Shown: positions 1,373 through 63,630 of the stretch, piece by piece
How the letters are laid out: the number at the start of each line of letters is the position of its first letter
How positions within the stretch are numbered: the first letter of the stretch is position 1
Assembly (NCBI GenBank): GCA_963809485.1
Contig: CAWEJX010000004.1
Span: forward strand, 192,001 to 256,000
Origin: an uncultured Acidobacteriota bacterium
GTDB lineage: Bacteria > Acidobacteriota > UBA6911
Direction of reading: 5' to 3'
DNA: 64,000 nucleotides
The notes under the pieces: generated by a model
The model's input: only the letters and a program-made list of their open reading frames with translations
Database searches by the model: none
What the model was told of the DNA's origin: nothing
Made by a program: the position numbers and the translations under genes

Positions 1373-1413
1373 GTCAGCGTTCGTCGGCGATTTTTTCAGC
1401 GTCTGTCAGCGTT
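1373..1413 (+). repeat. TCAGCGT-array element copy (core only)
   Basis: gtcagcgttcgtcggcgattttttcagcgtctgtcagcgtt between convergent genes. Confidence 0.8.
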
Positions 1414-1445
1414 GAACGATCGCTCCCCCCAATCATGGATATCGA

Positions 1446-1810
1446 CTATTGCTTGGGCGCGTTCTCGATAACGATCGGCTTGCCGGTCAGGTTTACGCTT
1501 AAAGTGTGGACCCAGCGGTATCTCCCATTTACCAGCCGGAATGTGTGGGAATCGGGCATGCCGTTTTCTCCTCCGAAGCGGCAGAATACGTTGACGGTCC
1601 CCATCTCTTCATCTACTAAAAAGGTCCGTTGCGTAATAAAGAGTTCTCCGAGAGGAGCATCAACTTTGCATGTGTCCTTGTATTCATTCTTGGGGTTGGT
1701 ATATGCGCCTCCCTCAAGCCGGGCGCACGGCGTCCCCCAGGGCGCCCGTACATACTTGTCCAGGAATACAAAATCAAAATACTGGTTGCCGCCAACGATT
1801 GCTATTCGAA
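1446..1810 (-). pseudogene. C-terminal fragment of a conserved hypothetical protein (DUF8021-like)
   Basis: YFD..LDK..APWGTPCARLEGGAYT..PDSHTFRLVNGRYRWVHTLS motif set; upstream part of ORF 1446-1994 looks unrelated and has no clear RBS. Confidence 0.5.
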
Positions 1811-2226
1811 TCGAGTGCTGCACCCAACCGCAGAAACGAGCAACTTCCTGCTTTGATATTTCGAAATCCCGGCAAAGCATATTCGCCAGAGGACAGCGGC
1901 TGTCCGTTGGCGAGCTTTGAAGGTATTCCCTATATCCTAATATAGGAATCCATCCGTCTGGAAAATATTGCGATGAGGCCGATCTTACGGACACGCGCAG
2001 GGCAAGCTGGCTATACAGATAGCTTTAATGTAGAATTGGAGACAGATGCCGTCAGGGGACTTGTTTAACCGACGGATACAGCTGGCAAAGCACCTGAAAT
2101 GCAGCAACTGGCAGGCTGCAATCCGGACTGCAGCCTATGTCGATAACACAGTCGAATGTGCGCTGCGGCTTCGAATCTCACGGTTCAGCGTGAATTGACG
2201 CCGTTCTCTTTGGAGGCAAGTGAAAC

Positions 2227-3003
2227 TTGAACAGTCCTGTAAGGCGGTTTTTTGCATCGACTGCGATTCTGGCAATTCTGATATTTGTCCTACCATCCCA
2301 TGCTGCAGAAAAAAGCGTTGAATCTGCCGCGGAGAAGGAAGGCGTGTCATGGACAAAGATATTGTACCAGTCCGGCCTCTTCCTGACGTTGCAGAGTGGA
2401 GTTCGCATCATTTACGAGGAGGAAACCCGTCGTGATATGGCCGGACCATTTTGGAAGGACTACTTCGAGTCGGTGCGCGGCCTGCACGGATGGGATGATG
2501 GAGATCCCTTCGCGGTCAATTACCTCGGCCATCCCTGGATGGGAGCGGTCGCCGGCAGGATATTCGTTAATAACGACCCGAAGGGCAGGGATTTTACCTT
2601 CAGCAACAGTAAGCCTTACTGGAAAAGCAGGCTGAAAGCGCTCGGCTGGAGCGCGATATATTCCACAACATTTGAACTCAGCCCAATGGGTGAAGCGGCG
2701 CTGGGGAATATCGGGGGTGAACCCTGGCCCGACGGCATGACTTATGGAGACCTGGTTGTTACTCCTGTCGTGGGCACAGGAATTCTTATCACGGAAGACC
2801 TCGGAGACCGGTACATTATCAGTTGGCTGGAACGACGTGCGGACTGGGTCCCCCTGATGGCTGCAACCCGGACGATCCTCAATCCCTCCCGCACAATGTC
2901 AAACCTTTTCCGTTTCAAGTGGCCCTGGCATCGCGATTCCCGGCCCGGCTGTCGGGCGATCCGCCAGATGAATCGATCGATAGCCGATGCCCGCGGGGAT
3001 TGA
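2227..3003 (+). CDS. Secreted/membrane protein, DUF3943-like
   Basis: GGAGG RBS before TTG; signal peptide; WDDGDPFAVNYLGHPWMG and DLVVTPVVG motifs. Confidence 0.7.
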   Translation: MNSPVRRFFASTAILAILIFVLPSHAAEKSVESAAEKEGVSWTKILYQSGLFLTLQSGVRIIYEEETRRDMAGPFWKDYFESVRGLHGWDDGDPFAVNYLGHPWMGAVAGRIFVNNDPKGRDFTFSNSKPYWKSRLKALGWSAIYSTTFELSPMGEAALGNIGGEPWPDGMTYGDLVVTPVVGTGILITEDLGDRYIISWLERRADWVPLMAATRTILNPSRTMSNLFRFKWPWHRDSRPGCRAIRQMNRSIADARGD

Positions 3004-3010
3004 GGCTATT

Positions 3011-3079
3011 TAACGCTGACACACGCCAACCTACGGAGCCTCAGCGTTCGTCGACCATTATCAGTGTAAGTCAGCGTTA
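3011..3079 (+). repeat. TCAGCGT-array element copy (left arm plus 4-unit right arm)
   Basis: taacgctgacacacgccaac..tcagcgttcgtcgaccattatcagtgtaagtcagcgtta. Confidence 0.8.
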
Positions 3080-3116
3080 TTCTGCTTCTTACGGCCCATC
3101 GTCGATGCGGGAAAGC

Positions 3117-5375
3117 CTAAGTCCTGCCTAAGGCTTTCAGCACTTTGTCCGGTGTTACCGGCGGGAAGATCCATTGTCCGATGGCATTGGCCACGGCGCA
3201 AACGGGAAGCAGAGGAGCGGCCATGCAGTGGCTGATGCCTGTCGCTCCATAGCAGGCGTTCCCCGATCGGGTTTCAACGGCATAGGTTTCGATCGGCCCA
3301 AAATCCAGCATCGTGGGCTTCTTATACTCCCACATGTTCGTGCTGAGCTTAACACCCGTCGCCTTGTCGAAAATCCACTCCTCGGATAATCCCCCTCCAT
3401 GACTGAAGAACATCGCCTGATGTAACTGGCCCTCAAACGACGTCATCCTCAGCACCTTGCCCGGATCACAGACGACCACATATTTGGTCACCTCCACCGC
3501 CCCGGTTTCGGGATCCACCGCCACCTCGCAGAAGCTCGTATTCATGACATCGAGGACTTTCCCGCCCTTGTGCCACGTGGTTTCCGGCGGTCTCCCGAAG
3601 AACGTCGCCGTGATATCCAGGTCATGATCGCCGAAGCCTTCATCCGCGATAAATTTCCCGAACGGGATGGATTGGCTGGGATCAGACTTCAGGTAAACCA
3701 TTGTGTCCCTTGTCTCAAGATCCTCAGGTTTGGCTTTGAATTTTGGGGCAGCCAGCTCCAGCAGCAGTTTTTTGCAGGCTACGGCCGCCTCTTTCATGAC
3801 CCAGGCGGATGCCGAAGTGCCGTCGCTCCCTCCCCCAACGGGAGTGAAAATGGCCTTGTTGTCATAAAGGAGAATCACATCCTCGATTTTTGCGCCCAAC
3901 TCCTCGGCGACGACCAGTGCGCAGGCATCGGCAGCGTAGACGCCAATCCAGGGTCCTTTGAGAGGCACATAGACTTTGTTGTCTGCCTGAATGGTGACCG
4001 TTGCCGTGTATGGTTGCTGGGCGTGGCGGGGAGACTGGGCGTACCGGAAGCTCAAGCCGTGCAGCCTGCCGTCGGCGAGCTTCTTCGTCCCAGCCGGATG
4101 CCACTTCCAGTTCATGGCCTGCTTGCCTTTTTCGATGCATTGCTGCAAGCCGGGAGGGACTCCGGGATCGGTCTGCGAAGCGGGACCGTGGACGTTTTTC
4201 AGAGCGATGTCCGTCGGGTCCATGCCAAGTTTTTCCGCCACGAGCTGTTCGGCTATGGTCATGGCGTCCCAATTAAACGGAGATGTCTGGCTGCCGGTGT
4301 TTTTGCCCGAACTCGTGTATACTCCCTGGGCATCGCTTCTAAGATTGACACAGCGGGTGGTATTGAACGGACTGAACATGGCTTCAAAGGCTCCCATGGC
4401 AAAAGCGCGCGCATTTTTGCCCGGAGCCCCCTGATCCCCGATCTGGCTCTCATAGACCGCCGTAATCGTCCCGTCATTTTTGAATCCGACTTTTGTGTGC
4501 ATGTAGCGCTGCGGATTTGAAGGATAGAAGTCGTTCTGCCTGGTATTCATGCACCGGACGGGCCGCCCCGTCCTCCTTGCCAGCAAAGGCGTAATGTAGG
4601 CGGCGCGGCGGATGAACCAGTCGCAGTACTTGCCGCCCTGGAAGGTGGTTCCGCGGTAGAGCTTATCGAAGGTGACGTTGTACATGGGACGAAGCTCAAA
4701 CGAACCCCACGTAGGGCTTATGCCCTCGATATAGAGCGTCGGGCCATCAACTCCCAACGGATCCTGAGCCCACCACGAGACGCTCCCGTTCGGATTCGGG
4801 ATATGCGAAGCCATGAGCGCCTGAGCCCAGTCGAATTCGACAATGTGGTCCGCCACTTTGAAACCGGCCTCAACATCCCCCGTGGTGAACGGTTTGGAGG
4901 CAAGGTCCTTGGGATCGATGCGAACGACCGGTGCGCCGGCCTTCAGACCATCCCGGGGATCCACCACGGTCGGCAGCACTTCCCATTCCACCTGGATCCG
5001 CTTCAGCGCCTCATCGCAGATTTCCGGGGTTACGGCGACAACTACCGCGCCTATTTCTTCGTCTTCGGTATCCGATTCGTCAATAAGCAGCGGCTCCCGG
5101 GTTCCTTTCATGTTCAGGATATCCGGATCGTCCCAGGTAAGGATATCCACCACTCCTTCCAGCGCTTTGGCTTTGCTGATATCGATGCTCTTGATCTTTG
5201 CCCGGCCATAGGGATTCCTGAGGAATTTGGCATGAAGCATGTCCGGCACGACATAATCGCTGCCGAATTTTGCTCTGCCTGTGGCGATGGTATACGACAG
5301 CCTGCCGGGCACATTCGTCCTGCCGACGGCTATAAATTCCGTTCTCTGTCCATTGCTGCCAACTATATCTGCCAT
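3117..5375 (-). CDS. Xanthine dehydrogenase family molybdopterin-binding subunit (paralog 1)
   Basis: ATGRAKF..DMLHAKFLRNPY..AKIKSIDISKAKALEGV N-terminus, EVAVDPETGAVEV, PVTPDKVLKAL C-terminus. Confidence 0.92.
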   Translation of the reverse strand: MADIVGSNGQRTEFIAVGRTNVPGRLSYTIATGRAKFGSDYVVPDMLHAKFLRNPYGRAKIKSIDISKAKALEGVVDILTWDDPDILNMKGTREPLLIDESDTEDEEIGAVVVAVTPEICDEALKRIQVEWEVLPTVVDPRDGLKAGAPVVRIDPKDLASKPFTTGDVEAGFKVADHIVEFDWAQALMASHIPNPNGSVSWWAQDPLGVDGPTLYIEGISPTWGSFELRPMYNVTFDKLYRGTTFQGGKYCDWFIRRAAYITPLLARRTGRPVRCMNTRQNDFYPSNPQRYMHTKVGFKNDGTITAVYESQIGDQGAPGKNARAFAMGAFEAMFSPFNTTRCVNLRSDAQGVYTSSGKNTGSQTSPFNWDAMTIAEQLVAEKLGMDPTDIALKNVHGPASQTDPGVPPGLQQCIEKGKQAMNWKWHPAGTKKLADGRLHGLSFRYAQSPRHAQQPYTATVTIQADNKVYVPLKGPWIGVYAADACALVVAEELGAKIEDVILLYDNKAIFTPVGGGSDGTSASAWVMKEAAVACKKLLLELAAPKFKAKPEDLETRDTMVYLKSDPSQSIPFGKFIADEGFGDHDLDITATFFGRPPETTWHKGGKVLDVMNTSFCEVAVDPETGAVEVTKYVVVCDPGKVLRMTSFEGQLHQAMFFSHGGGLSEEWIFDKATGVKLSTNMWEYKKPTMLDFGPIETYAVETRSGNACYGATGISHCMAAPLLPVCAVANAIGQWIFPPVTPDKVLKALGRT

Positions 5376-5610
5376 ATTCTCGCCTCACCCACCAAATTAT
5401 TAGCGCTGGTTATGCGAGCGATTGTACTACGGAATACGGGATTGGGGTCGAGAAGTCTTCGGTTGGATCCCAAAGCCATCGAGCCAGGGTGCAGCAGAAG
5501 CTTGCCTTGGGCAAACTAGCTGAGTTTCCCCAGCAATCCCGCAGCTCAAACCCGCACTTCGCCGGTTGTGTTATCCCGCAACCGGCCATAAAATGTCCGG
5601 CGATCTTAAC

Positions 5611-6216
5611 ATGGAGATGAAGATGGCCAATCGCGCTGTCAGGGTGATCCTAATAGCCTTCATCGTTCTTGTTCTTCTGGCCATGATCGCCACCGCTTAT
5701 TACTTTGCCAGGGTGAAGCCCCTGATCCGGGCAGGCAAAGAGCAGGGCGTTTATTCCACCGTGCCGGAGCGTCCCCAGGTGGGCGGATTCGGATTTGCGG
5801 CTGAAAGCAGCCCGGGAAAAACAATTGCAGACCTCCGGGGCAAGGTCGTAGTCGTTGACGTCTGGGCCACATGGTGCCCGACCTGCATTTACACCATTCC
5901 CAGCATCGTCGCATTGCGCAACAAGTATCCCGCCGAATCCGTTGAAATTATCGGGCTGAATGTTGATGATGAAGGATGGGTTAAAGCAAAGCCGTTGCTT
6001 TTGAAACATCCGAAAATCAACTACACGATAGCCCTGCCGTCCCCTGCCCCTTCCTTTCTCCTGCAGTCGATTGTTGATCTGAAACCGCTTGGGGAGGTCT
6101 CCGCAATCCCGACTGTTTTTGTGATAGATCGGCAGGGCAGGCTTGCCGGGAAATTCATCGAAACGGGCCATGAACATGAAATCGACAACCTGGTTGCCAG
6201 CCTGCTCAACGAATGA
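5611..6216 (+). CDS. TlpA-family thiol-disulfide oxidoreductase, membrane anchored (start uncertain)
   Basis: N-terminal TM helix; GKVVVVDVWATWCPTC; IPTVFVIDRQG. Confidence 0.88.
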   Translation: MEMKMANRAVRVILIAFIVLVLLAMIATAYYFARVKPLIRAGKEQGVYSTVPERPQVGGFGFAAESSPGKTIADLRGKVVVVDVWATWCPTCIYTIPSIVALRNKYPAESVEIIGLNVDDEGWVKAKPLLLKHPKINYTIALPSPAPSFLLQSIVDLKPLGEVSAIPTVFVIDRQGRLAGKFIETGHEHEIDNLVASLLNE

Positions 6217-6433
6217 ATGCTATGAGCGGAGGATCTAACCGATTGTATGCTTTTTGTTTGGCCGTCTTCCCATTCATTTTCAGTGCGGACAACTCGCTTC
6301 TTCTGTTTTGCTGAGGACGGGTCTCCGGCAGCCGTCCGCTGGATCCTCACTGGTGATTTGCCAGATAGGCTGAGGCCGTAATAGACTGGTATTGTCCTCA
6401 AAACGCACGAGCCTTAAGAATGAAAGGAAACGC

Positions 6434-7314: not shown

Positions 7315-7354
7315 TCAGCGCTTTTCAGCGCCGTTGTGGGTGCAGGTCAGGATT
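7315..7354 (+). repeat. Degenerate TCAGCGT-array copy
   Basis: tcagcgcttttcagcgccgttgtgggtgcaggtcaggatt keeps the unit spacing. Confidence 0.45.
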
Positions 7355-9661: not shown

Positions 9662-9887
9662 AAAAGCCCGACTGGAGGATTGGGAGTGCGCATGGGCCTG
9701 CCTCTTGTGCCCTAATCATAACAGCGATCCGGCGTAATAGGGACGTCATTCATCATGCTGCGCAGCGGTGCCGGCTTTTAGCTCTGGCTTTGGAGATCGC
9801 TTCTCCAGGGGCATAAGATGAGTCTCCATTCTCGGCTATTCAAGATTATGGGATTCCGCTAAAATAGGCCTCAACCACCGAAACGCT

Positions 9888-10253
9888 ATGCATTGTATTT
9901 CACCGGCTGTCGGTTTGGAGGGATACCTCGTGATCGGCAAGGACCAGGGCATGCTTTTCGGCGCCATGGCGGTCCTCAGCCCTCCGGTCGCCAATTACAT
10001 CAAGGCAGAAGGATTCGATACGGTTGAGAAGCTGACGGAATATATAAGGCCGGCCGCGGAGCCTCCCATGGGAAAGCCGCCCGCCGGCAAAGAGCCTGCC
10101 GGGAAGGCGCCTGCCGGAAAGCAAGCCGGCGGAGCCCCGCCCTTCGGTGGAATGCCGATATCCATCGTCGTATCCGGAGGAGCGAACAACAATTATTGGA
10201 GCTATGGAGGAATGGCTCCCCGCCAAAGCGTCCTGATCGACAAGTGGCGCTAG
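9888..10253 (+). pseudogene. C-terminal fragment resembling UGSC-family (seleno)proteins
   Basis: EGFDTVEKL..IVVSGGANNNYW..SVLIDKWR terminus; no upstream body of the gene. Confidence 0.5.
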
Positions 10254-10324
10254 GCCGGTGCAGTTTGTCTTTCCGGTTTTCGAGGAGATCGATCCAAATA
10301 TTGCATGAGTTCCAATTGCTTTGG

Positions 10325-10440
10325 CCGCTGACGTACACTGACCGAAGCCTTAAGGATCAGCGTACGTCAGCGGTTTTGTCAGCGTTCGTCGGCGTTACCC
10401 GAACCCGGAGCTGCCAAACTTTATCGGCCCCCTGCAATGC
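10325..10440 (+). repeat. TCAGCGT-array element copy with degenerate hairpin-end tail
   Basis: ccgctgacgtacactgac..tcagcgtacgtcagcggttttgtcagcgttcgtcggcgtta, then cccggagctgccaaact..ggccccctgcaa matching 46168-46205. Confidence 0.8.
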
Positions 10441-10574
10441 CATGTGATAACGGATGCCTCCAGGGACTAAACCTGCGCTCTCCGCATACCGGCAACACAA
10501 AGGTGTATAATGCCCGGCGCCCGGAATCATAAAAACCCGGATTGAAGTCTGAGAGTCTATAAGGAGGCCTTTCT

Positions 10575-12155: not shown

Positions 12156-12178
12156 AGTCCCTGAGTTCCGCGAGTCCC

Positions 12179-12232
12179 AAACGCTGACCAACGCTGAAAT
12201 CCACTGGGGATTATCAGCGCTGGTCAGCGTTT
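12179..12232. repeat. Symmetric TCAGCGT hairpin between convergent genes (possible terminator)
   Basis: aaacgctgaccaacgctga..tcagcgctggtcagcgttt followed by a T run. Confidence 0.75.
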
Positions 12233-12240
12233 TTATTGTG

Positions 12241-12702: not shown

Positions 12703-12777
12703 ATCATGACTCCATGCCGCCCCGCTTGAGGCTGCCTGCCGCAGATCACGCGGCCAAAGTGCTTTATTATTGATTAC

Positions 12778-13174
12778 ATTGGTAAACCCCCGGCTCTGCC
12801 GGGGGACTCAAAGAGATTGACAGCTCCGTATTTTGAAACGCTGAGAAACGCTGATAAAAGCGCTGACAAACACCGATTTGTTCGGCGAGGGTCGGCGAGC
12901 AAAAGCCGATGAGGCGCTTCCGATGGAGTTTTCTGCGGCGGCACTGTGGCAAATGCCCGGTTTCTCATACCCTTCATCTCCTTGCCGCACGGCGCTTGCC
13001 ACAGTGCCGCCGCAGAAAACTGTCCAGCGCGGAGCGCTGGCCCCTGCGGGGAACGGAAGCGCCTCATCGGCTTTTGCCCGCGTAAGTCAGCGTTCAAGAC
13101 CGGCGTAACTCCTCCAACCGCTTTGAGCGGTTCAAATCTTTCAAGCCTCCGGCTTTGCCGGAGGTACCTGACTC
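12778..13174 (-). mobile_element. Non-autonomous nested-palindrome element, longest copy (397 bp), IS200/IS605-like hairpin ends
   Basis: End hairpins cccccggc-tct-gccggggg, aaccgctttgagcggtt and cctccggctttgccggagg; TCAGCGT arms; 24-bp IR 12899-12922/13054-13077; 25-bp IR 12928-12952/12996-13020; inverted near-copy at 45969-46219. Confidence 0.8.
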
Positions 13175-17172: not shown

Positions 17173-17185
17173 CCCTTTTTCCCGC

Positions 17186-17887: not shown

Positions 17888-17903
17888 CGATTTGATAGAT
17901 CGT

Positions 17904-27044: not shown

Positions 27045-27085
27045 TCAGCGTTCATCGGCGTTTTTGTCAGCGTAGGTCAGCGTTA
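27045..27085 (+). repeat. TCAGCGT-array element copy
   Basis: tcagcgttcatcggcgtttttgtcagcgtaggtcagcgtta. Confidence 0.8.
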
Positions 27086-34377: not shown

Positions 34378-34452
34378 AATGCTGATAAACGCTGATTCCC
34401 CCAAAAAGTCTTTTCAGCGTTCGTCAGCGGATGTCGGCGTAAGTCAGCGTTT
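34378..34452 (+). repeat. TCAGCGT-array element copy (both arms)
   Basis: aatgctgataaacgctga..tcagcgttcgtcagcggatgtcggcgtaagtcagcgtt. Confidence 0.8.
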
Positions 34453-34944: not shown

Positions 34945-35042
34945 GTCAGCCTTCATCAGCGCTTTTGTCAGCGTACGTCCGCGTGATAAAATTCGGCGTC
35001 TGCCAAGCTCCATGAGTTCCCCAGCAAAGCTGGGGGTTTGCC
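34945..35042 (+). repeat. TCAGCGT-array copy with hairpin-end tail
   Basis: gtcagccttcatcagcgcttttgtcagcgtacgtccgcgt, then atgagttccccagcaaagctgggggtttgcc matching 46187-46216. Confidence 0.82.
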
Positions 35043-38555: not shown

Positions 38556-38596
38556 TCAGCGTTCATCGGCGCTTTTATCAGCGTATATCGGCGTTA
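38556..38596 (+). repeat. TCAGCGT-array element copy
   Basis: tcagcgttcatcggcgcttttatcagcgtatatcggcgtta. Confidence 0.8.
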
Positions 38597-40771: not shown

Positions 40772-40802
40772 TCAGCGCTTTTGTCGGCGTATGTCAGCGT
40801 TA
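40772..40802 (+). repeat. TCAGCGT-array element copy
   Basis: tcagcgcttttgtcggcgtatgtcagcgtta, 10 nt from the MetRS-like stop. Confidence 0.75.
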
Positions 40803-40812
40803 CCAAACGCTT

Positions 40813-45968: not shown

Positions 45969-46219
45969 GAGTCAGGCACCTCCGGCAAAGCCGGAGGCTT
46001 GAAAGATTGGAACCGCTCAAAGCGGTTGGAGGAGTTACGCTGGTCTTGAACGCTGACTTACGCGGGCAAAAGCCGATGAGGCGCCTCATCGGCTTTTGCT
46101 CGCCGACCCTCGCCGAACAGATCGGCGTTTGTCAGCGCTTTTGTCAGCGTATCTCAGCGTTTCAAAATACGGAGATGTCAAACCCTATGAGTCCCCCGGC
46201 AGAGCCGGGGTTTGCCAAT
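45969..46219 (+). mobile_element. Second near-intact copy (251 bp) of the nested-palindrome element
   Basis: Reverse complement of 12778-13174 lacking the inner 141 bp plus one GCGC; perfect 34-bp palindrome at 46066-46099. Confidence 0.82.
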
Positions 46220-46329
46220 AGAATCACAAAGAACTCGCTGCCGGCAGATGGAACCAGCTCTCCTTCGCCGAACAAATGGCGAATCTCGGGAGAGGTCAAT
46301 CCTCCGCTATTGGGGATTGTTCTCAGGCA

Positions 46330-47073: not shown

Positions 47074-47139
47074 TTACGGCCGGCGGGGATCCGATGACAG
47101 TCGTTATAAGGCCGACTCTGGAGACTCGTCCATAAATTT

Positions 47140-47178
47140 TAACGCTGACATACGCTGATAGACGCCGACGTACGCTGA
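47140..47178 (-). repeat. TCAGCGT-array copy, minus orientation
   Basis: taacgctgacatacgctgatagacgccgacgtacgctga. Confidence 0.8.
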
Positions 47179-47535
47179 AAATTTATTAATAAATGATATT
47201 TTCTCGGCATTTGACATTGATCGAGTGAGGACTGCTCTCCAGAGACTTTCTCAAAACTGCCGGTGGGAGTTTCATGACAGTCGTTTTGAGGCAGACTCTG
47301 GAGAACCATTCTCACTGAGGAATCCTTCGACCATCCTGAGCTGCATGCCGGTGCTGAAAACAGCCTCTTCGCCGAGCTCAGGGCAACATAAAAATCCCGG
47401 AATCTGGCACATGCTCGAATTATATTCAGCCAGCGGGGGAGCGCGAGCGTCTGTTTTGCAGACCACAAATTACGTAGCCTGTCTCCCTTTTATGGCTTAT
47501 AATCAGCGCAAAAATTCCAATCGTGAGGCGACAAC

Positions 47536-51439: not shown

Positions 51440-51491
51440 GGCTCCCACCTCCGGAATCCGATGCAGAATCCTGAGCCGCTGCATCGCCTCG

Positions 51492-51779: not shown

Positions 51780-51965
51780 TACCGGCAGAAGCCGCCTGAA
51801 TGCTGCAGAGCCTTACGCGTCTTTGAAGTCATTATAGTCGCCGAACACCGCCATCAAAAGGAAATTGGCTTGCTTCAGAACTCGGGGAGGGAGGCCAGCA
51901 CCGCCTCAGCGGCAGCTGGACGTTGATGAATTGGATCCGCTGCATGATACTATTCAGGCCAACCC

Positions 51966-52739: not shown

Positions 52740-52787
52740 ACAACGAAGCGGCCGGCGCTTGGAAGAGCCGTCCCTATCAATTCTGGC

Positions 52788-52905
52788 ACGCTGACTTTCA
52801 CTCTAATGGTCAGCGTTCATCGGCTCTTTTTCAGCATATGTCAGCGTTATCCAATTGCAGAATTATCGAGCTCCCTAAGTCCTCCGGCAAAGCGTGGGGA
52901 TTGTC
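52788..52905 (+). repeat. TCAGCGT-array copy with degenerate hairpin-end tail
   Basis: acgctgac..gtcagcgttcatcggctctttttcagcatatgtcagcgtta..agtcctccggcaaagcgtgggg. Confidence 0.78.
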
Positions 52906-53260
52906 GGTGCATGCAAAATCTAATCATTCACATCAATATATTCCACATTGCCTTGTGGTTTCGACCATTGCCTTGACGTTTTCTATCTTTGCTTCATCCA
53001 GCGGGCAACTGTGTCCCATAATAAATCCGCCGACCTTGCAATTGACTTTGGTTTTGCCTTTGTGTCAAATAGCCCCAATCTATCTGGCGATCCATTAAGC
53101 AAATGCCGGTAATTAGCAGTCCGGGGGCGCTGCGGTCGCTTTCACGCTCTTAATTCGCCGCCACCAGCCTGCCGTACCGTTGAGCTAATGCCTTGCGACG
53201 CTTGCATTAACCCGCCGCTGTCATCAGGTCTGAACCGCCGGAATGATAGAAAGGAATCCC

Positions 53261-56200
53261 ATGAAAAGGTCCCTCGTTGCTTCGTTTCTCATAACAGCAT
53301 TTCTGCTGATTCTCCAGACGAGCCATTCTTTTGCCCAGTCGGGCAATGTTGTCATCACTTCCGACACGACCTGGCCTTCAGGCACATATAATCTAAGCAG
53401 CCTGAAGGTTACCAATAATGCAAGGCTGCTTTTGCAGGGCGCCGATACAACGGGCAAGGTGGGCGGCCTGTGGCAGGGCAAGGGAGTGACGATTGTCTCC
53501 GCGAGCATAGAAGTTGATCCCGGCAGTTCAATTAGCGCCGACGGACAGGGTTACACTGGAGGAGCGACAGCTCATCCGGGTAATGGCCCCGGCGGCGGTT
53601 GCGGGACTGATCTATATGACAGTGCAGGAGGAAGCTATGGCGGCTTGGGATGGGGGCCTGCGTCCTGCCCTCCAGGACCGGTTTACGGATCCGCTCTGAC
53701 GCCGGCCGATCCCGGTTCGGGCGGCGGCGGCACCACGACCACCTCCGGAGGCGGTGGCTATGGTGATCATGTTGGCGGCGACGGCGGCGGAGCCATACGC
53801 CTGATCGTCAGCGGCACGCTCACGAACAATGGAACAATTTCTGCCAACGGAACGAGTGGCATCGGGCTTTGGCCCCCGGGTCTCGACAACTATGCCGGCG
53901 GGGGCTCGGGCGGCTCCATCTGGGTGACCGCAGGCGTTCTGACGGGTTCCGGCAATTTCACAGCGAATGGCGCGCCCCGGTATTGGGGCGCGCCAACCTG
54001 GCCTTCGGGCGGCGGCGGGCGCATCGCTGTCTACTACGGTGCTGACGGCTCTTTTACCGGATTCGACTCCTCCACAGCCAACGGGGCGCCTGCAGCCCAA
54101 CAGGGCACCGTTGCTTTCATAGACTCGAGTCAGAATGACCTTCTAGTAACCGGAGCACAGCGCTTCATTTACAGCCAGGATTCGGCAATCACCTTTCATA
54201 ACATAACCGTAAGAGGCGGCGCCAGTTTGACGGTTGGCGGCAATTCAACAATTACCGTTACCGGCACCATCCTGGTTACAGAAAATTCAAAGATCATTCT
54301 CGAGGGTAAGAACAGGAATGCATCAACAGGCGGCCTGGGCGTGACGGTTACGGCTGCCAACGTCCAGGTGGACTCCGGCAGCTCAATCAATGCGAACGGG
54401 CAGGGCTACACCGGCGGAGCGACAGGGCAGCCGGGGAACGGCCCGGGGGGCGGTTGCGGGACTCTTGGATTTGACAGTGCAGGAGGAAGCTATGGCGGCC
54501 GCGGCTATGGCACCCCTACCTGCAGCTCCGGACCGACCTATGGATCGGCCCAATATCCAACCGACTTTGGTTCAGGCGGCGGCGGCACGACTACCACCTC
54601 CGGAGGCAGTGGCACTGGTGATCATGTCGGCGGCGACGGCGGGGGGGCCATTCGTATGATCGTTACCGGAACAATCCTCAACAACGGTGCGATTTCCGCC
54701 AATGGCAGCAGCGGCCTTGCACTTTGGCCTCCAAGCCTTGACTGCTACGCCGGTGGCGGCTCGGGCGGTTCTCTCTGGATAACCGTGGGGACTCTATCGG
54801 GTTCCGGTGTGTTCTCGGCCGATGGCGGACCCCGATATTGGGGCGCGCCAACCGATCCTTCGGGCGGCGGCGGCAGAGTCGCCATCTATTACTCAAGCAA
54901 TACGTTTGGCGGGGCAATAACGGCTGACAAAGGAAGCGCCGGATCAGAGGATGGGACAGTCAACCTGGTTTCTACAATAGTCAACATCACCATCCGCACG
55001 AATCCGTCGGGACGCAGCTTCACCGTAGATGGAACGGGCTACAGCAGCACCCAGACATTCAATTGGGAAATGGGCAGCAATCACTCCATTTCAACGTCAT
55101 CCCTGCAGGCAGGTGCGACCGGAACACGCTATGTTTTTACCAATTGGTCGGACGGAGGCGCCCTGAGCCACAGTATTACGGCTCCCGAAAGCACGACTAC
55201 CTACACTGCAACCTTTAAGACTCAATACCGGCTAACGACCACCCCATCCCCCACAGCCGGCGGCACGATTGCGGCGTCACCCTCCTCATCCGATGGATAC
55301 TACGACAGCGGCACCTCCGTGCAACTGACTGCCACGGCAAACAGCGGCTATGCGTTCGCCAACTGGTCGGGCGACTTGAGCGGAACCACAAATCCGCAAA
55401 ACGCGACTCTCAGCGCACCCCGGTCCGTAACCGCCAACTTCAACGCCGTGGTCATGACATCGATAACAATCGGCACGAACCCGGAAGGCCGCAGTTTCAC
55501 AGTAGATGGCACGGCCTATACAAACACTCAGACCTTTTCATGGGAGGAGGGCAGTGTTCACACAATCGCGACCTCAACTCCGCAGGCCGGGTTGACGGGT
55601 ACGCGATACCGATTTGCAAACTGGTCGGATGGCGGCAGCCTGAGTCACAGCGTCACGACGCCCGGCAGCGCAAGGACATACACCGCCAATTTCACGACCC
55701 AGTATCAGTTGACCGTTTTGGCCACCCCTCTGGTGGGCGGATCTGTCGCTGCGACACCCGCATCGGCAGACGGTTTCTATGACAGTGGCACATCCGTGCA
55801 ACTGACCGCTTCATCCAATAGCGGTTTCGCCTTCTCAGACTGGTCGGGGGATTTGAGCGGAACTGCAAATCCGCAGAGCTTGATTCTCAGTGCACCCCGG
55901 TCCGTAACGGCCAACTTCAGCGCCCTGGCCGGCGTAGCGGTTATCGTTTCCACGAATCCGGCCGGGCGCAGCTTCACAGTGGATGGAGTGGCATACACGA
56001 CGACCCAGAATTTCATTTGGACAGAGGGAAGCAGTCACACGATTTCCACAACCTCGCCTCAAACGAGCTCCGGGACGCGATACCAGTTTGCTGCCTGGAG
56101 CGATGGGGGAGCAATCAGCCACTCAATCAATGTTCCCGCTACAACAACCACTTACACGGCCGGTTTTACGGTTCAGTATAGGCTGACCACATCGGCTTCA

Positions 56201-57847
56201 CCTGCCAACGGAGGGCATGTAAATGCAAACCCGGCTTCATCGGACGGATATTATGCCTCCGGAACCGCAGTGCAGTTGACAGCCGGAGAAAACAGCGGCT
56301 ATTTCTTTTCAAGCTGGAGCGGCGACTTGTCGGGGATGGCGAATCCCCAAACGGTGACGATGTCAGTTCCTCGCAGCATTACCGCGAATTTCATGCCCAA
56401 AGGTGTTTCGGTGAACCTTACTTTGAGTCGCGGAGCCGCGGCAGCTGCCGGCACTGCAGGGACTGGCGAAGCGGTCCGGGTTGGTTACTCGACGCTGACG
56501 CTGAATTCAGGCGTCGATCCATACGGAACGGCCGTGTTCAGCTTTATGCAGTCCGGAATAACCGTTACGGAGGCGGGCGTTCCTGCATCTCCTCCCACGA
56601 CTCGAGCACGGATCTTTATTGACTACCGTGAGGCCGTGGATGCAGTGCCCGGGCGAAGTGGCTCCGGAATAATTGACATCAACACCGGTATCGTTGTCGT
56701 CAATTACGGCTCGGCCGCCGCCAACGCCACCTATACCTTGCGCGACATGGAAGGCACCATCATCGCGACCGGCCATGGAGAACCATTGAATCCGGGAAAT
56801 CATTTCGCCTGCTTCATCCATGAATTAAAGGACAGGGCCGCACCGGATTTCAATCTCCCTCCGGATTTCCAAAACACGACTCAATTCGGCTCTCTCGAAA
56901 TTGCCAGCGACCAGCCGGTATCGGTGCTGGGTTTGCGCGGGACTTATAACCAGAGAGACGAATTTCTCATCACAACCACGCCAGTAGCCGATCTGATTCA
57001 GCCCTTCATCAACAGCTCCATATATTTTCCTCAGTTTGTCGATGGCGGCGGATACACCACGTCGCTGATTCTTCTGAATACATCCGGCGTGACCGAAACG
57101 GGCAGCCTTCAAATCATGGACAAATTTGGTGCTCCTTTTGTTGTCCAGCAGGCCGGCGGCGCGGCCGGTTCATCCTTCATGTATTCGATCCAGCCCCACG
57201 GCGTTTACCGATTCCAGACGGACGGATCCCCCACGGATGTCAAGGCGGGATGGGTGCGGCTGACGCCTGATTCAGGCAAATCCACGCCTGTCGGTTCGGG
57301 GGTATTCGGATTTAACCCGCTAAACATCCTGGTATCGGAATCCGGCATTCCTTCAGCGGTTTCCACCACTCACGCCCGTGTTTATGTGGATCTTTCGGGC
57401 AAGCACAATACGGGTCTGGCGATCGCAAACACTGCAGATACGAGCGCCGAAATCGCGCTTAAGGCATATCAAAGCGACGGTGTCACGGAAATAGGCGCCA
57501 GCCAGGACATTCCTCCGCTGGATGCCCACGGGCACACTGCGGCATTCGCCAACGAGTTTATCTCGGGACTGCCCGCCGGATTCAACGGTGTGCTGGACAT
57601 CAGTTCGACCGCACCCTTTGCGGCCCTGACGCTGCGTTCCCTATACAACGAGCGTGATGATTTCCTGATGACGACATTCCCGGTTGCGGATGCGAATAGG
57701 CCCGCTCCGAGTCCGATAGTATTTCCCCAAATTGTCGATGGGGGAGGCTATATAACGCAATTTTTCTTCATCAGCCCAAGCGGGGAATCGAGCGCAACTC
57801 TCCATTTCCGGGATGAAGAAGGGGAGCCGATGCCAGTGGGGAGATAA
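53261..57847 (+). CDS. Large secreted/surface protein: duplicated Gly-rich unit, three tandem InlB-B-repeat-like modules, duplicated PQxVDGGGY C-terminal domain
   Basis: Signal peptide; two ADG/NG-QGYTGGA..GGGSGGS..GGGGR units; three TNPxGRSFTVDG..WSDGG..WSGDLSG..TANF repeats. Confidence 0.88.
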   Translation: MKRSLVASFLITAFLLILQTSHSFAQSGNVVITSDTTWPSGTYNLSSLKVTNNARLLLQGADTTGKVGGLWQGKGVTIVSASIEVDPGSSISADGQGYTGGATAHPGNGPGGGCGTDLYDSAGGSYGGLGWGPASCPPGPVYGSALTPADPGSGGGGTTTTSGGGGYGDHVGGDGGGAIRLIVSGTLTNNGTISANGTSGIGLWPPGLDNYAGGGSGGSIWVTAGVLTGSGNFTANGAPRYWGAPTWPSGGGGRIAVYYGADGSFTGFDSSTANGAPAAQQGTVAFIDSSQNDLLVTGAQRFIYSQDSAITFHNITVRGGASLTVGGNSTITVTGTILVTENSKIILEGKNRNASTGGLGVTVTAANVQVDSGSSINANGQGYTGGATGQPGNGPGGGCGTLGFDSAGGSYGGRGYGTPTCSSGPTYGSAQYPTDFGSGGGGTTTTSGGSGTGDHVGGDGGGAIRMIVTGTILNNGAISANGSSGLALWPPSLDCYAGGGSGGSLWITVGTLSGSGVFSADGGPRYWGAPTDPSGGGGRVAIYYSSNTFGGAITADKGSAGSEDGTVNLVSTIVNITIRTNPSGRSFTVDGTGYSSTQTFNWEMGSNHSISTSSLQAGATGTRYVFTNWSDGGALSHSITAPESTTTYTATFKTQYRLTTTPSPTAGGTIAASPSSSDGYYDSGTSVQLTATANSGYAFANWSGDLSGTTNPQNATLSAPRSVTANFNAVVMTSITIGTNPEGRSFTVDGTAYTNTQTFSWEEGSVHTIATSTPQAGLTGTRYRFANWSDGGSLSHSVTTPGSARTYTANFTTQYQLTVLATPLVGGSVAATPASADGFYDSGTSVQLTASSNSGFAFSDWSGDLSGTANPQSLILSAPRSVTANFSALAGVAVIVSTNPAGRSFTVDGVAYTTTQNFIWTEGSSHTISTTSPQTSSGTRYQFAAWSDGGAISHSINVPATTTTYTAGFTVQYRLTTSASPANGGHVNANPASSDGYYASGTAVQLTAGENSGYFFSSWSGDLSGMANPQTVTMSVPRSITANFMPKGVSVNLTLSRGAAAAAGTAGTGEAVRVGYSTLTLNSGVDPYGTAVFSFMQSGITVTEAGVPASPPTTRARIFIDYREAVDAVPGRSGSGIIDINTGIVVVNYGSAAANATYTLRDMEGTIIATGHGEPLNPGNHFACFIHELKDRAAPDFNLPPDFQNTTQFGSLEIASDQPVSVLGLRGTYNQRDEFLITTTPVADLIQPFINSSIYFPQFVDGGGYTTSLILLNTSGVTETGSLQIMDKFGAPFVVQQAGGAAGSSFMYSIQPHGVYRFQTDGSPTDVKAGWVRLTPDSGKSTPVGSGVFGFNPLNILVSESGIPSAVSTTHARVYVDLSGKHNTGLAIANTADTSAEIALKAYQSDGVTEIGASQDIPPLDAHGHTAAFANEFISGLPAGFNGVLDISSTAPFAALTLRSLYNERDDFLMTTFPVADANRPAPSPIVFPQIVDGGGYITQFFFISPSGESSATLHFRDEEGEPMPVGR

Positions 57848-57890
57848 GCTGTCTTTGGACCTTATGCTTTGACTTTATCTTCATGTAACT

Positions 57891-57980
57891 GTCAGCGTTC
57901 AGCAGCGCCTTTGTCATAGACGTACGTCAGCGTTACATGATACCCGGGCTGCCAGACTCTACGAGTCCTCCCGAAAAGCT
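57891..57980 (+). repeat. TCAGCGT-array copy with degenerate tail
   Basis: gtcagcgttcagcagcgcctttgtcatagacgtacgtcagcgtta..gggctgccagactctacgagtcctcccg. Confidence 0.75.
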
Positions 57981-58113
57981 CAATTTATGTCTGTTTGGCG
58001 CTCATGCCTGAAGCGTCCTCGGATAATGCGGATTTCGTGGACAGCGAGATCGGGTTTAGAGCATTCTATTGCCAGAATCCGTAAAGAATTATCGACGCAA
58101 AAGGAGAAAATAC

Positions 58114-59310
58114 ATGGCCGGCCCCTATGAGGAGCTGAACAGGATTTTTGGTCCGCGCAACGTGCTGAACGACTCGAAAATCCTCGAGGCTTGCTCCAAA
58201 GATGAAAGCTTTTCCCAGCCGCTGAAACCGCATTACGTCGTCAAAGCCCAGAATGCAGCCCAGATCCAGGAGCTTGTGCAATGGGCGAACCGGACCCTGA
58301 CCCCCCTGGTGCCCGTAAGCTCCGGCCCCCCGCATTTTCGCGGGGACACGGTTCCCGGCGCCCCGGGCGCGATCATAGTCGACCTGAGCGCAATGAAGAA
58401 AATTGTTCATGTGGACAGGCGAAACCGGATGATCCTGATCGAGCCCGGCATCACCTATGCCCAGCTTCAGCCGGAGCTGGAAAAACACGGATTGCGGTTG
58501 TCTTCGCCGCTGGCTCCCCGCGCAAATAAATCCGTGATCGGGGCGCTGCTGGAAAGAGAACCGATAACAATCCCTCGATTGCAGTGGTCGATGCTGGATC
58601 CGTTGAGATGCACGGAAGTCATATGGGGCGATGGGCAAAGAATGACAACGGGCGAAGCCGCAGGCACGGATGCTTTGGAGACGGAATGGGCGAGACACCG
58701 TGCGCAGGTGATCCCGATGGGGCCGGGACAGACTAATTTCTATAAATTCACCTCGGCAGCTCAGGGCAGCATGGGCATCGTTACCTGGGCTTCCGTCAAA
58801 TGCGAGGTACTGCCCCAGGTCCATAAGCTCTTTTTGGTGCGGGCACCGGAACTGGCGGATCTCCTGGATCTGACCTATTCAATACTCAGAATCCGTTTTG
58901 GCGATGAACTCTTGATCATGAACAACTGGAATTTCGCCATGCTGCTTGGGAAAAATCCCGGCAGCATCGGCGCTCTCGCTGAAAATCTGCCTCGATGGGT
59001 CCTCATGGTAGGGATCGCAGGGAGGGACAGGCTGCCCGCGGAGAGAGTGGCCTACCAGCAAAAGGACATTTCCGCATTGGCTCAGAAACACGGTCTGCAG
59101 CTTCTACCGGAAGTCCCGGGGGTCGGGATGGAAAGGCAAAACGCGCTGTGCCGTGGGCGCGACGGCAAGGAGGTGCCCAGGGAGCGGAGGGAAGTTGCCT
59201 ATGCGGCATCCCCTCAGGCGCACGTATTCCGATACCAGCAGAAGATCCGGGAAGCCTTCAATCCCAACGATCTGGGCGACTCCTACTACGTTACTCTGGG
59301 TTCGCCCTGA
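58114..59310 (+). pseudogene. FAD-binding oxidoreductase, internally deleted or chimeric
   Basis: N-terminal ~335 aa parallel 29840-31358 (PLVPVSSGPPHFRG, LEREP, GPGQT, AQGSMG), then jumps to a KIREAFNPNDLGD tail without the GAFFSRPYG segment. Confidence 0.65.
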
Positions 59311-59411
59311 TTGCCGGATGAGTCGGCCAGGAATATGCGGTTCCCGCCACAAAGGCGTGTCCACCGCTCCGTGAATCTATCCGGCGGAGAATCCGCGAAG
59401 TCGGCGCCAAT

Positions 59412-59804
59412 ATGAAAGTCAGCGGCGTCACCCTACCGTCGCGAACCTATATGAGCAACAAGCTTGTTCCCGGATGCAACGTCTATGTGGAATATTCGTG
59501 GATCTATCAAATGCCCGAACCTGAGCTCGTTGTGCCCTCCGTTCATTCCCACCCCTACGAACAGGTTACCCTCATGATCGGCTCCGATCCTCAAAATCCC
59601 GAAAATCTCGGAGCAGCGGTAGAGAACTACCTGGGCGGGGAAAGAATGATCAGCGATAGGACCAATGCCATTTATATCCCAAAGGGAGTGGAGCACGGCC
59701 GTGTATGCTGGAAGAGCTTTGATAGACCGCATCTGCTGATGTCCATCACTCTGGGCACCGGCGACTTTGAAAAAGCCAACCCGGGCGGATACAGCAAAAA
59801 ATAG
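59412..59804 (+). CDS. Cupin-like hypothetical protein, related to 34504-34941
   Basis: HSHPYEQ..GSDP.NPENLGA.VE..YIPKGVEHG. Confidence 0.7.
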   Translation: MKVSGVTLPSRTYMSNKLVPGCNVYVEYSWIYQMPEPELVVPSVHSHPYEQVTLMIGSDPQNPENLGAAVENYLGGERMISDRTNAIYIPKGVEHGRVCWKSFDRPHLLMSITLGTGDFEKANPGGYSKK

Positions 59805-61766: not shown

Positions 61767-62008
61767 TTTTCCTCCCGCGAGTGTCATGGTTATCGAAAAC
61801 TGATTGTTCCATAGTCTTACAGGTGAAGCATGCCCCATTCTTTGAAATCGGCATCAGCCGGTTCCGGGCGCCGTCGCCATCCGTTCCATGTTGGGCTATC
61901 TCGGGAGGAAAGTCAAAAACCTATGACAAACGGGAGGCTTGACTTCAAATCCTTCAAGGCCGTTAAATGAGTTTCACCGGCTCTTGCACCCTAATCCTCG
62001 CATAGGTG

Positions 62009-62050
62009 GTCGGCGTTCATAGGCGTCTTTCTTGATTCATGTCGGCGTTA
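62009..62050 (+). repeat. Degenerate TCAGCGT-array copy
   Basis: gtcggcgttcataggcgtctttcttgattcatgtcggcgtta; upstream gggaggcttga..tcaaggccgtt (61932) echoes 45992-46027. Confidence 0.6.
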
Positions 62051-62190
62051 CCTGCTTCTGGAGAGGGTAAAAGTCTGCGGGAAGGGCCGGGCAGGAAACC
62101 ACTTCCGATTGCCAAGTATCTTTGTTTGAGTGTATGTTCTTCACACGTCGCGATTTTTATTACTGAGTGAAAATTCGGAGGCTATAAAAC

Positions 62191-63462
62191 ATGACCCAAG
62201 AGACTCCTGGAAACAGTGCCGTGAAGGAATATGCCGAAAGAGATCAGAGGGTAAACGATGCCATAGCCATGAAGGTACCGGACCGCGTGCCGATCCAGTT
62301 GTTCGTCGGCTACTTCGCGGGCAGGTACTGCAACATCCCATTTTCATCCGCTTACTACGATGCTCCAAAATGGAGGGAGGCCAATATCCGGACCATAACA
62401 GAGCTTGCACCGGATGTTTACTGGGCACAGCCCGCCGCTGCTTCCGGGAAAGCACTCGAGGTCCTCAACCCGCTTAACATGAGGTGGCCGGGGTTCGGTG
62501 TGCCTCCGAACAGCAGTCACCAGATGATCGAGCTGGAGCCGATGAAGGCGGAGGATTATGACGCATTTTTTAGCGACCCCTCGGACTATATTGTGCGCAC
62601 CTACCTGCCCCGTGTCGTGGAATCAGCGGCGCCTTTGGCCAAGCTGCCCCCATTGCGGTCGCTGATGGGCGGCATGGGTATGGCATCCTATTTGACGGTG
62701 TTCACCCGGCCGGAAATGGCGGAAATGCTTGACAAATTCCGCAAGGCAGCGGAATTACAGGCAAAGTGGCAGACCCAGGAGATTTTCTTCGATGACGAAA
62801 TGGCGAGGCGTGGATTTCCCTGCTACACCACTCCAAGAATGATGGGAGGATCAGCCTTCGACATGGTTTCCGACTTTCTCCGCGGCATGCGCGGTGCAAT
62901 GCTGGATATGTATCGCGCTCCCGACAAGCTCCTTGAAATCTGCGATACGCTCTGCAACCAGACCGTGAAGACGATAAAGGCATTGCCTCCTCCTGCGGAA
63001 GGCAGTGTCAAAAGAGTTTTCATGGCACTTCACAGAGGTTCGGACGGATTCATGTCTCTGTCTCAATTCGAGAAATTCTACTGGCCCACTCTTAAAAAAG
63101 TCATATTGACTTTGATCGACGCCGGATGGACGCCCTGCCCATTCTTCGAAGGAACCTGGGACCAGCGCCTTGAATACATTCGAGAATTGCCCAAGGGATC
63201 CATCCTATGTCATTTCGCGAGGACTGACCCGGAAAAGGCAAAGGCCGTCCTGGGCGGACATCTTTGCTTTATGATTGACGTCCCCGGCAGTATTTTGCAG
63301 GCTTGCACCGTCTCAGAAGTCGAAGACTATTGCAGGAAGCTTATCCAGACATGCGGTAAAGACGGCGGCTTTATCATGACGGCCACAGCCCTGGACGAAG
63401 CCAAGCCGGAGAACGTGAAAGCTATGCTGGATGTTACCAGGAGCTACGGCAGGTATGTCTGA
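62191..63462 (+). CDS. Uroporphyrinogen decarboxylase / MtaA-CmuA family protein
   Basis: PDRVP, MKAEDYD, LRGMRG..DMYR.P, LHRGSDGFMS..QFEKFYWP, KDGGFI, AKPENVKAM. Confidence 0.9.
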   Translation: MTQETPGNSAVKEYAERDQRVNDAIAMKVPDRVPIQLFVGYFAGRYCNIPFSSAYYDAPKWREANIRTITELAPDVYWAQPAAASGKALEVLNPLNMRWPGFGVPPNSSHQMIELEPMKAEDYDAFFSDPSDYIVRTYLPRVVESAAPLAKLPPLRSLMGGMGMASYLTVFTRPEMAEMLDKFRKAAELQAKWQTQEIFFDDEMARRGFPCYTTPRMMGGSAFDMVSDFLRGMRGAMLDMYRAPDKLLEICDTLCNQTVKTIKALPPPAEGSVKRVFMALHRGSDGFMSLSQFEKFYWPTLKKVILTLIDAGWTPCPFFEGTWDQRLEYIRELPKGSILCHFARTDPEKAKAVLGGHLCFMIDVPGSILQACTVSEVEDYCRKLIQTCGKDGGFIMTATALDEAKPENVKAMLDVTRSYGRYV

Positions 63463-63482
63463 TCTCTGGTCCGATTATCAAC

Positions 63483-63630
63483 AGCCTGCGGCAAGGCCGG
63501 AGGCTGGATCGACTCCACCAACATGAAACGCTGACGCACGCTGACTTCCTCCCTATCATCAGCGTACGTCAGCGCTTTAGTCCGCGTAGGTCAGCGTTAC
63601 CAGATCCTGGAACTGTCAGACTCTGCAACT
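63483..63630 (+). repeat. TCAGCGT-array copy retaining traces of both hairpin ends
   Basis: agcctgcggcaaggccggaggct..aaacgctgacgcacgctgac..tcagcgtacgtcagcgctttagtccgcgtaggtcagcgttac..ggaactgtcagactct. Confidence 0.8.

Follow-up and report, generated by a model that had tools for sequence, protein, structure and literature searches.

TCAGCGT box arrays as a probable internal module of high-copy, gene-less IS200/IS605-type elements in an uncultured acidobacterium

Gene-less elements resembling palindrome-associated transposable elements (PATEs) are described, along with about 50 insertion sequences (ISs) lacking tnpA, in the sections of PMC10055086 cited here, which concern G. stearothermophilus. 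The corresponding sections of PMC3597680 and PMC6006769 state that IS608 and ISDra2 insert 3' of a tetra- or pentanucleotide and into the lagging-strand template, and the former gives the linkers of IS200/IS605 elements as 15-16 nt on the left and 8 nt on the right. The cited part of PMC6006769 (Quentin et al.) also covers insertions of repetitive extragenic palindromes (REPs) that keep the reading frame and a 'class 3' of TnpAY1 from Acidobacteria and Planctomycetes, with atypical CnGA-footed structures and about 600 copies in Solibacter usitatus. We analysed a window of 64,000 nucleotides, the whole stretch presented here (C4:192001-256000), from the genome of an uncultured Acidobacteriota bacterium (G000; 6.04 Mb, 21 contigs, 55-58% G+C, completeness 95.7%, estimated contamination 7.3%), in which a first-pass annotation had noticed 17 strand-biased arrays of the heptamer TCAGCGT. 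The sister genome used for comparison, G006 (completeness 98%), belongs to the same genus and is ~92% identical to G000 in syntenic genes. With a probability of about 0.78, the arrays are an internal palindromic module of high-copy, gene-less IS200/IS605-type elements, that is, of PATEs.

The heptamer occurred 45 times in the window, while 100 shuffles gave a mean of 7.26 and a maximum of 14, and the motif or a degenerate form of it was present at all 17 loci, of which those at 7315 and 62009 were the least convincing. TCRGCGT boxes were on the + strand at 14 loci and reversed at two (12837 and 47140), and the locus at 12179 was a symmetric foldback, which is the split originally described. 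The array consensus was also recovered, with up to two ACGCTGA boxes, a loop, TCAGCGT-N3-TCRGCG, a T-rich spacer of 5-6 nt and TCAGCGT-N3-TCRGCGT-TA. Throughout the genome, the spacing between TCRGCG boxes of the same strand peaked at 10 (1227), 12 (347) and 11 (127) nt, with 6-60 for the other spacings. There were 1014 arrays of at least two boxes and 560 of at least three, and a strict four-box pattern gave 329 matches, against 0 for the same pattern read backwards.

A BLAST search of the genome with positions 45800-47400 of the window revealed a sharply bounded repeat of ~250 bp in about 270-300 copies. Grouping of the matches gave 385 loci, 190 of them full length, in two size classes of ~235 and ~395 bp, and queries made of the outermost 95 bases at either end of one natural copy gave 282 left-end and 312 right-end matches. 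Alignment of 78 long (class A) and 88 short (class B) copies showed that most columns were more than 90% identical and that class B is class A minus its central long hairpin. The loop of this hairpin, ~35 nt long (for example, window 12930-12975), was the sole strongly variable stretch of class A, the rest being more than 90% identical. The 'two full copies' of the first-pass annotation are the class A and class B copies of Table 1.

The borders of the repeat were abrupt: the strand carrying TCAGCGT starts with AGTCAGGYACC and ends with TTTACCAATKKAATTA, and the flanks beyond are random. Read on the other, active strand, the left part consists of TRATT (the target, outside the element), ACATTGGTAAA, a left hairpin CCCCCGGC-TCT-GCCGGGGG and a segment containing TTGACA, and the right part consists of ACGCYGA/TCRGCGT foldback arrays with nested palindromes, a hairpin CCTCCGGC-TTT-GCCGGAGG and the end TRCCTGACT. 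In the aligned copies the two ends were GC-rich subterminal hairpins of the same orientation, with no terminal inverted repeat, and the linkers read from the alignments were 11 nt on the left and 9 nt on the right. Single-strand folds of the two window copies were more stable than those of shuffled sequences (z = -7.7 and -14.1), and the predicted folds included both terminal hairpins and a long, central, multi-branched palindrome containing the boxes.

The pentanucleotide TRATT was conserved beside the left end in the aligned copies (78 and 88), and the flanks further out were random. At the orthologous position of the class A copy, G006 had an empty site, ...TTATTAT-GGATT-CGATCCG..., where the window reads ...TTATTAT-TGATT-[398 bp]-CGATCCG...; the element therefore sits 3' of the pentanucleotide and made no target duplication. 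Contigs from three metagenome runs (soil and wetland) gave the bins of the element a summed depth 100-1000 times that of the bins on its flanks, and many contigs broke at 45969/45970 and at 46210 into unlike flanks.

Orientation was compared with the sign of the GC skew in the surrounding 200 kb for the 268 copies that covered more than 150 nt of the query. In bins of 50 kb it was nearly uniform across whole contigs, with 60 '+' and 3 '-' copies on C20 (1.36 Mb), and it agreed with the skew for 222 of the 268 copies (178 '+' copies in negative skew and 44 '-' copies in positive skew). On contig C7 the copies changed from 12 '+' and 2 '-' up to 440 kb to 2 '+' and 11 '-' from 483 kb, which is the flip at an origin that had been suggested as a check; the sole dnaA match was at 454,563-455,039 and the minimum of the cumulative skew at 410 kb. 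Because copy orientation follows the GC skew and flips at dnaA, the active strand can be equated with the lagging-strand template: left of the origin this template is the parental - strand, which is also the active strand (TRATT to CCTGACT) of '+' copies. The primary paper on such replication coupling is reportedly that of Ton-Hoang in 2010. A Y1 HUH transposase supplied in trans would recognise both subterminal hairpins in single-stranded DNA, and the orientation would thereby be fixed on each replichore. Chi-like polar sites were considered as well; insertion bias would explain the skew.

The position of the arrays relative to genes was examined with our own crude gene model, which took the longest open reading frames (ORFs), scored them on codon usage and yielded 4419 genes at 79% coverage. 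Genome-wide, 495 of 510 array loci were intergenic, and gaps between convergent genes, which are 17% of the intergenic regions, held 149 of 494 intergenic array loci. The window agreed with the description 'intergenic, mostly near a stop codon', since 15 of its 17 loci were within ~100 nt of a stop codon, and those at 12837 and 62009 were between divergent genes. These positions, and the TTT that follows the end hairpin, would suit terminators or structures of RNA 3' ends that are under selection where genes end. We rejected this terminator or 3'-untranslated-region reading, which is the least probable of those weighed here, because orientation was independent of gene direction: in tandem intergenic regions, + arrays numbered 39 (++) and 45 (--) and - arrays 23 and 20, respectively. 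Orientation followed replication instead, and the window contained no Rfam match at gathering score. Enrichment at 3' ends is expected for any small mobile element from purifying selection against promoter insertions.

The search for a mobilising enzyme gave four matches to the Y1 transposase family PF01797 in the genome (L006, L007, L008 and L009). Three of them (L007, L008 and L009) resembled REP-associated tyrosine transposases (RAYTs) or were partial, and L006 was an IS200-type tnpA with an HUH motif (HVHL) and a Y....Q motif. The upstream end of L006 aligned with the left end of the element, with TAATT, ATT..GGTAAAC and ACTCnAAA common to both, and its left hairpin differed from that of the element by compensatory changes in the stem around an identical loop. 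Downstream, L006 stopped at the right terminus of the element, GCCTGACT. Its homologue in G006 (L020) was the same IS with the same left end and an intact start. Homologues of this TnpA, with 41-67% identity, were found in 18 of 400 other Acidobacteriota genomes sampled, and 10 of the 12 loci inspected had CCCCCGGCTCTGCCGGGG ... AGAGTTTGACAG to their left and CCGCTTTGAGCGGCTCAC ... AAGCCCCCGGCTYTGCCGGGGGATAYTTACT to their right, sequences that are plainly homologous to the ends of the element. The homologues with such ends include intact genes.

The anatomy, the precise and duplication-free insertion seen at the empty site, the replication-linked orientation and the homology of the ends to those of tnpA-bearing IS200 elements were all observed here. 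They bear out the proposal of a non-autonomous family of HUH type (IS200/IS605, Y1) whose orientation is set by replication, and we consider the non-autonomous, HUH-mobilised, strand-biased description very probably right. How transposition proceeds chemically, and what the arrays do, we only infer.

Some side observations were also made. Downstream of the broken IS200 copy, at 1990-2560 of L006, there is a phage-integrase-like C-terminal frame that is itself interrupted by one stop. Beyond the window, G000:C4:292364-292720 holds a further Y1-like frame, which has the motifs HYH ... YVDLNP and was not among the PF01797 matches at E <= 0.01. In L004 (G000:C8:329700-336200), ORF 3661-5544 encodes a threonyl-tRNA synthetase with an 'archaea-specific' editing domain (PF08915, 1.5e-43).

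Like PATEs as the cited sections describe them, the elements have no coding capacity, ends homologous to those of a tnpA-bearing IS and a presumed mobilisation in trans; they have subterminal hairpins and lack both inverted terminal repeats and a target duplication. They differ from PATEs in their very high copy number (about 270-310), in an interior made of phased 7-nt boxes and nested palindromes, and in that neither a match to TnpB (PF07282) nor an intact cognate tnpA was found in G000 or G006; the lack of TnpB in these genomes makes an omega-RNA role unlikely. With IS608 and ISDra2, as far as the cited sections go, they share insertion 3' of a specific site (here TRATT) and an active strand on the lagging-strand template. 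Their left linker is also the longer one, but the lengths differ (11 and 9 nt, for 15-16 and 8 nt), and the elements carry no genes.

REPs and REP doublets forming hairpins (REPINs), with their RAYTs, resemble the elements as high-copy intergenic palindromes with a link to Y1 HUH enzymes, whereas the elements measure 235-395 bp and have IS200-type ends in place of the 20-40 bp of REPs. A REP/REPIN system (palindromes of 20-40 bp, footed by GT[AG]G and grouped about one RAYT gene) was rejected, since no arrays lay within 1.5 kb of the four PF01797 matches and the RAYT-like genes (L007 and L009) were flanked by repeats other than the arrays. The RAYT-like Y1 gene of L007 (G000:C15:224127-227471) is flanked by a different high-copy REP set, with the hairpins CCGTCGC-TCAC-GCGACGG, CCCGGCC-TTGAAA-GGCCGGG and GGCCGC-TAC-GCGGCC, and this locus gave 652 short BLAST matches genome-wide. 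Integron attC-like sites were dropped, as the copies are dispersed over all contigs and do not form a cassette array.

The class 3 TnpAY1 system, set beside the elements by its description in the cited section only, resembles them in its acidobacterial host and in that the box ACGCYGA contains CnGA. A crude six-frame regular-expression search of G000 (95.7% complete) for a class 3 gene (NHVH ... YV[VI]xEQ) gave three loose hits, none of which was such a gene. We regard the connection as a lead.

Several results weigh against the identification of the elements as IS200/IS605-type PATEs. The orientation of 46 of the 268 copies was discordant with the GC skew, and orientations were mixed on contig C8, where a terminus, rearrangements or misassembly may be the cause. 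The search for empty sites gave a clean one just once: at 45970 G006 carries an unrelated insert, and at 38556 it has a young full copy where that of the window is strongly diverged. A tnpA flanked by the same hairpins, which the first-pass annotation had proposed to look for, exists as an IS with the same ends, but it is broken here, L006 by an in-frame TAG near codon 24 and L020 by loss of the frame before the tyrosine motif, and no intact cognate was found in the two genomes at their completeness of 95.7% and 98%. In the autonomous IS200 relatives a locus of 3.3 kb has 0-3 boxes, which places the arrays outside the ancestral IS. The linkers of 11 and 9 nt depart from the 15-16 and 8 nt given in the cited section of PMC3597680, and guide/cleavage-site complementarity, sought by eye, gave no convincing pairing.

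The arrays were not confined to this family (family 1). Outside its loci were 140 of the 270 solo arrays of at least three boxes and 73 of the 240 foldbacks. In a second family, with 24 larger copies, the arrays are one-armed and lie between repeats of another hairpin unit, and there is no strand bias (11 vs 13 of 24). There were also 46 free foldbacks of 80-100 bp bounded by TAACGCTGAC ... GTCAGCGTTA, with sharp palindromic ends and unrelated flanks, which cluster on C7 at 712-784 kb, on C8 at 607-667 kb and on C5. These foldback-rich stretches (C5 also having a higher G+C, 57.7%) may be an accessory replicon, an island or foreign contigs, given the contamination estimate of the assembly. At G000:C7:251439-252122, six box foldbacks of 98 bp stand head to tail with a period of 117 bp and form a small satellite.

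Such arrays could be mobile units of their own, that is, a foldback MITE (a miniature transposable element with inverted repeats) of ~95 bp bounded by TAACGCTGAC...GTCAGCGTTA, of which the PATE would carry a nested copy and whose transposase would read the phased heptamers. The pure foldbacks with their sharp ends, clustering and six-copy tandem, the second, strand-unbiased family, the autonomous IS200 relatives without arrays, the occurrence of the same design in Patescibacteria, Elusimicrobia, Ktedonobacterales and another Acidobacteria metagenome-assembled genome (MAG), and the lack of covariation between the arms (see below), which is expected of double-strand binding sites, all speak for it. 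However, a search that did not include DDE families turned up no gene for a transposase, either between arrays or next to them: nine pairs of left and right ends 0.7-6 kb apart, screened for an autonomous copy, enclosed only housekeeping genes (esterase, MutL, HisRS, ThrRS, TldD/PmbA and others), and three pairs of arrays 1.78 kb apart enclosed peptidases. All-vs-all clustering of 828 array-flanking genes gave ordinary paralogue families and no uniform multi-copy family. The free foldbacks have inverted ends like those of a MITE with terminal inverted repeats, but no target duplication could be told apart from the palindrome, and of the solo arrays outside family 1, 87 of 140 still have the orientation of their replichore. 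We consider an independent foldback MITE the main rival, although unlikely on balance.

A profile made of the array and the left-end module gave 888 hits genome-wide, and in 236 hits of 20-40 bits the array was covered to ~90-100% and the end module to 10-40%. The genome scan showed that arrays are far more frequent than recognisable ends. The statement that the core outlasts its flanks holds as a description; much of the effect reflects arrays of other families that never had these flanks.

The ready detection of arrays without ends, their heptamer direct repeats with 10-12-10 bp spacing, and the locus at 34945, where the array and hairpin are conserved and the intervening spacer of 29 nt has ~15 changes (the single hint of core retention), would fit a host that retains the arrays as helically phased sites for a DNA-binding protein, for example a nucleoid or replication/segregation factor. 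The comparison of G000 with G006 goes against this. The five orthologous arrays (7315, 27045, 34378, 34945 and 40772) were ~90-95% identical, like their surroundings, and the changes included substitutions within boxes and an indel of one 10-bp unit at 40772. A further array, that at 1373, was absent from G006. The four-box pattern was found in one of 40 relatives, G006, with 46 matches, and in none of the 23 further genomes among the 24 of the same genus, and 400 other genomes of the phylum gave one match, a trivial 10-bp tandem repeat. As the pattern is missing from nearly all of these relatives, no conserved host system can depend on the arrays, and we judge a host-retained binding site to be very improbable. 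The proposal that the core was kept as a host binding site or an RNA 3' structure was not supported, since the arrays diverge about like their flanks and their orientation ignores gene direction; even taken together, the two versions are decidedly unlikely.

We favour the arrays as a selfish structural or recognition module. They would be a selfish structural part of the element, built through duplication of 10-nt units and not a site retained by the host, and they would zip the element into a hairpin that brings its two ends together. We propose this zipper role tentatively, at somewhat less than even odds. In 27 strict four-plus-four foldbacks, whose arms were 82% complementary, there was no covariation at the third position of the boxes (p = 0.65): the pairs T-A, T-G, C-A and C-G were observed 49, 30, 20 and 9 times, for 50.5, 28.5, 18.5 and 10.5 expected, respectively. 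Selection for pairing at the variable box position is therefore not favoured. The arms are also unequal, with 2 boxes facing 4-6, and the recurrence of the heptamer in unrelated phyla is better accounted for by a sequence-specific reader than by stem formation alone.

A scan of species-representative genomes gave at least 71 loci with the pattern. Among the matches listed, about half were trivial 10-bp tandem repeats and ~20 had the same design as the acidobacterial foldback: four ACGCRGA boxes and, across an AT-rich loop, four TCAGCGT boxes, with 10-12-10 spacing and a short hairpin at either end. Their hosts, again among the matches listed, were several groups of Patescibacteria, Elusimicrobia, Ktedonobacterales, Omnitrophota and another Acidobacteria MAG, and five of these genomes had 1-3 copies each. 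Gene context was examined for 17 loci. The array was in the 16S rRNA gene in two (L064 and L090) and in the 23S rRNA gene in two (L071 and L099), with a LAGLIDADG ORF adjoining three of these four, and it was in a stop-free frame of GyrA in two (L070 and L087), of LeuRS (L097), of another class I tRNA synthetase (L132) and of SecA (L117); the remaining loci were intergenic.

Rickettsia palindromic elements are small palindromes inserted in frame in genes. The four-box foldbacks of Patescibacteria in the GyrA, LeuRS, class I synthetase and SecA frames and in 16S and 23S resemble such in-frame elements, and the resemblance extends only to the other phyla, the arrays of G000 being almost all intergenic. 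The phased-heptamer foldback (four ACGCNGA boxes, a loop and four TCNGCGT boxes with 10-12-10 spacing, often capped by hairpins) might be a distinct mobile module, found across phyla and read by a sequence-specific protein, which we think rather improbable.

The features of the window are collected in Table 1. Its short and solo arrays would be older, eroded or truncated copies together with members of sister families that share the module.

Table 1. Array-bearing features of the window, by position
Feature	Position	Strand	Remarks
Solo four-box array, TCAGCGT-N3-TCGGCG-N6-TCAGCGT-N3-TCAGCGT	1374..1412	+	Homology to G006 ends within the first box; array absent there
Decayed foldback: one ACGCTGA box, loop, TCAGCGT boxes at 3041 and 3071	3013..3077	+	
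Degenerate array remnant, TCAGCGC repeats	7315..7345	+	G006 orthologue conserved about like flanks
Diverged copy: two left-arm boxes, loop, four right-arm boxes, remnant of hairpin end module	10325..10395	+	
Small symmetric foldback: two ACGCTGA boxes, loop, TCAGCGC/TCAGCGT	12181..12230	strandless	
Target pentanucleotide TGATT, directly 5' of the class A copy on the active strand	12771..12775	+	G006 empty site: GGATT, then right flank
Full 398-bp class A copy	12776..13173	active strand +, TCAGCGT boxes on -	Ends CCTGACT
Hairpins of the class A copy	left near 12787-12805, right near 13146-13164	+	
Solo four-box array	27045..27083	+	Three array positions differ in G006 orthologue
Foldback, two left and four right boxes	34378..34450	+	Has G006 orthologue
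Diverged copy: array, then conserved end hairpin CCCCAGC-AAA-GCTGGGG	34946..35040	+	G006: array and hairpin conserved, spacer diverged
Solo four-box array within strongly diverged copy	38556..38594	+	G006 has a full young-type copy there
Three-box array	40772..40806	+	One more 10-bp unit in G006 orthologue
Full class B copy, ~250 bp	45970..46221	active strand -	Target TGATT (read on -) at 46222-46226
Copy of second array-bearing family, boxes 47142-47178, between two ~38-bp hairpin units	47080..47310	-	
Decayed foldback copy	52788..52847	+	
Decayed array and end-module remnant	57892..57933	+	
Degenerate array, TCGGCGT boxes	62009..62055	+	
Foldback, two left and four right boxes	63528..63597	+	

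The two units of ~38 bp that flank the array at 47080-47310 are ATGACAGTCGTT..GACTCTGGAGA, and at the orthologous place in G006 there is one such unit without an array. The arrangement resembles an insertion in which a long unit was duplicated, or else a composite built of units like REPs. Elsewhere, the segments 1382-6321, 9670-12720, 16607-27020, 31517-32991, 38944-39881, 43307-44657 and 49832-59728 of the window are missing or replaced in the syntenic contig of G006, and in G006, conversely, 3.2 kb lie where the window runs from 40012 to 40706. Several of the junctions of these indels are within 60 bp of an array, an overlap likely to arise by chance with 17 loci over roughly 50 intergenic regions.

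Small gene-less elements account for much of the intergenic repeat load of this genome, and annotators should be cautious about calling the arrays operators or terminators. With several hundred gene-less copies, the family is an exceptionally clean natural record of replication-coupled single-strand transposition, and because orientation switches at dnaA the elements can mark the replichores and so help to orient contigs from this uncultured lineage. This kind of mobile DNA is already known; the novelty, if any, is in the phased-heptamer module and its occurrence across phyla. If the module is truly mobile across phyla, it would have hitch-hiked into, or been captured by, an IS200-type PATE in this acidobacterium and so reached hundreds of copies, and the inserts of Patescibacteria in rRNA genes, gyrA, secA and tRNA-synthetase genes would imply that they are either removed, from the RNA or from the protein, or translated and tolerated. 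The reason for the presence of these phased heptamers both in an IS200-type element and in distant phyla, together with the factor that reads them, could point to a partner protein or a mobile module not yet described.

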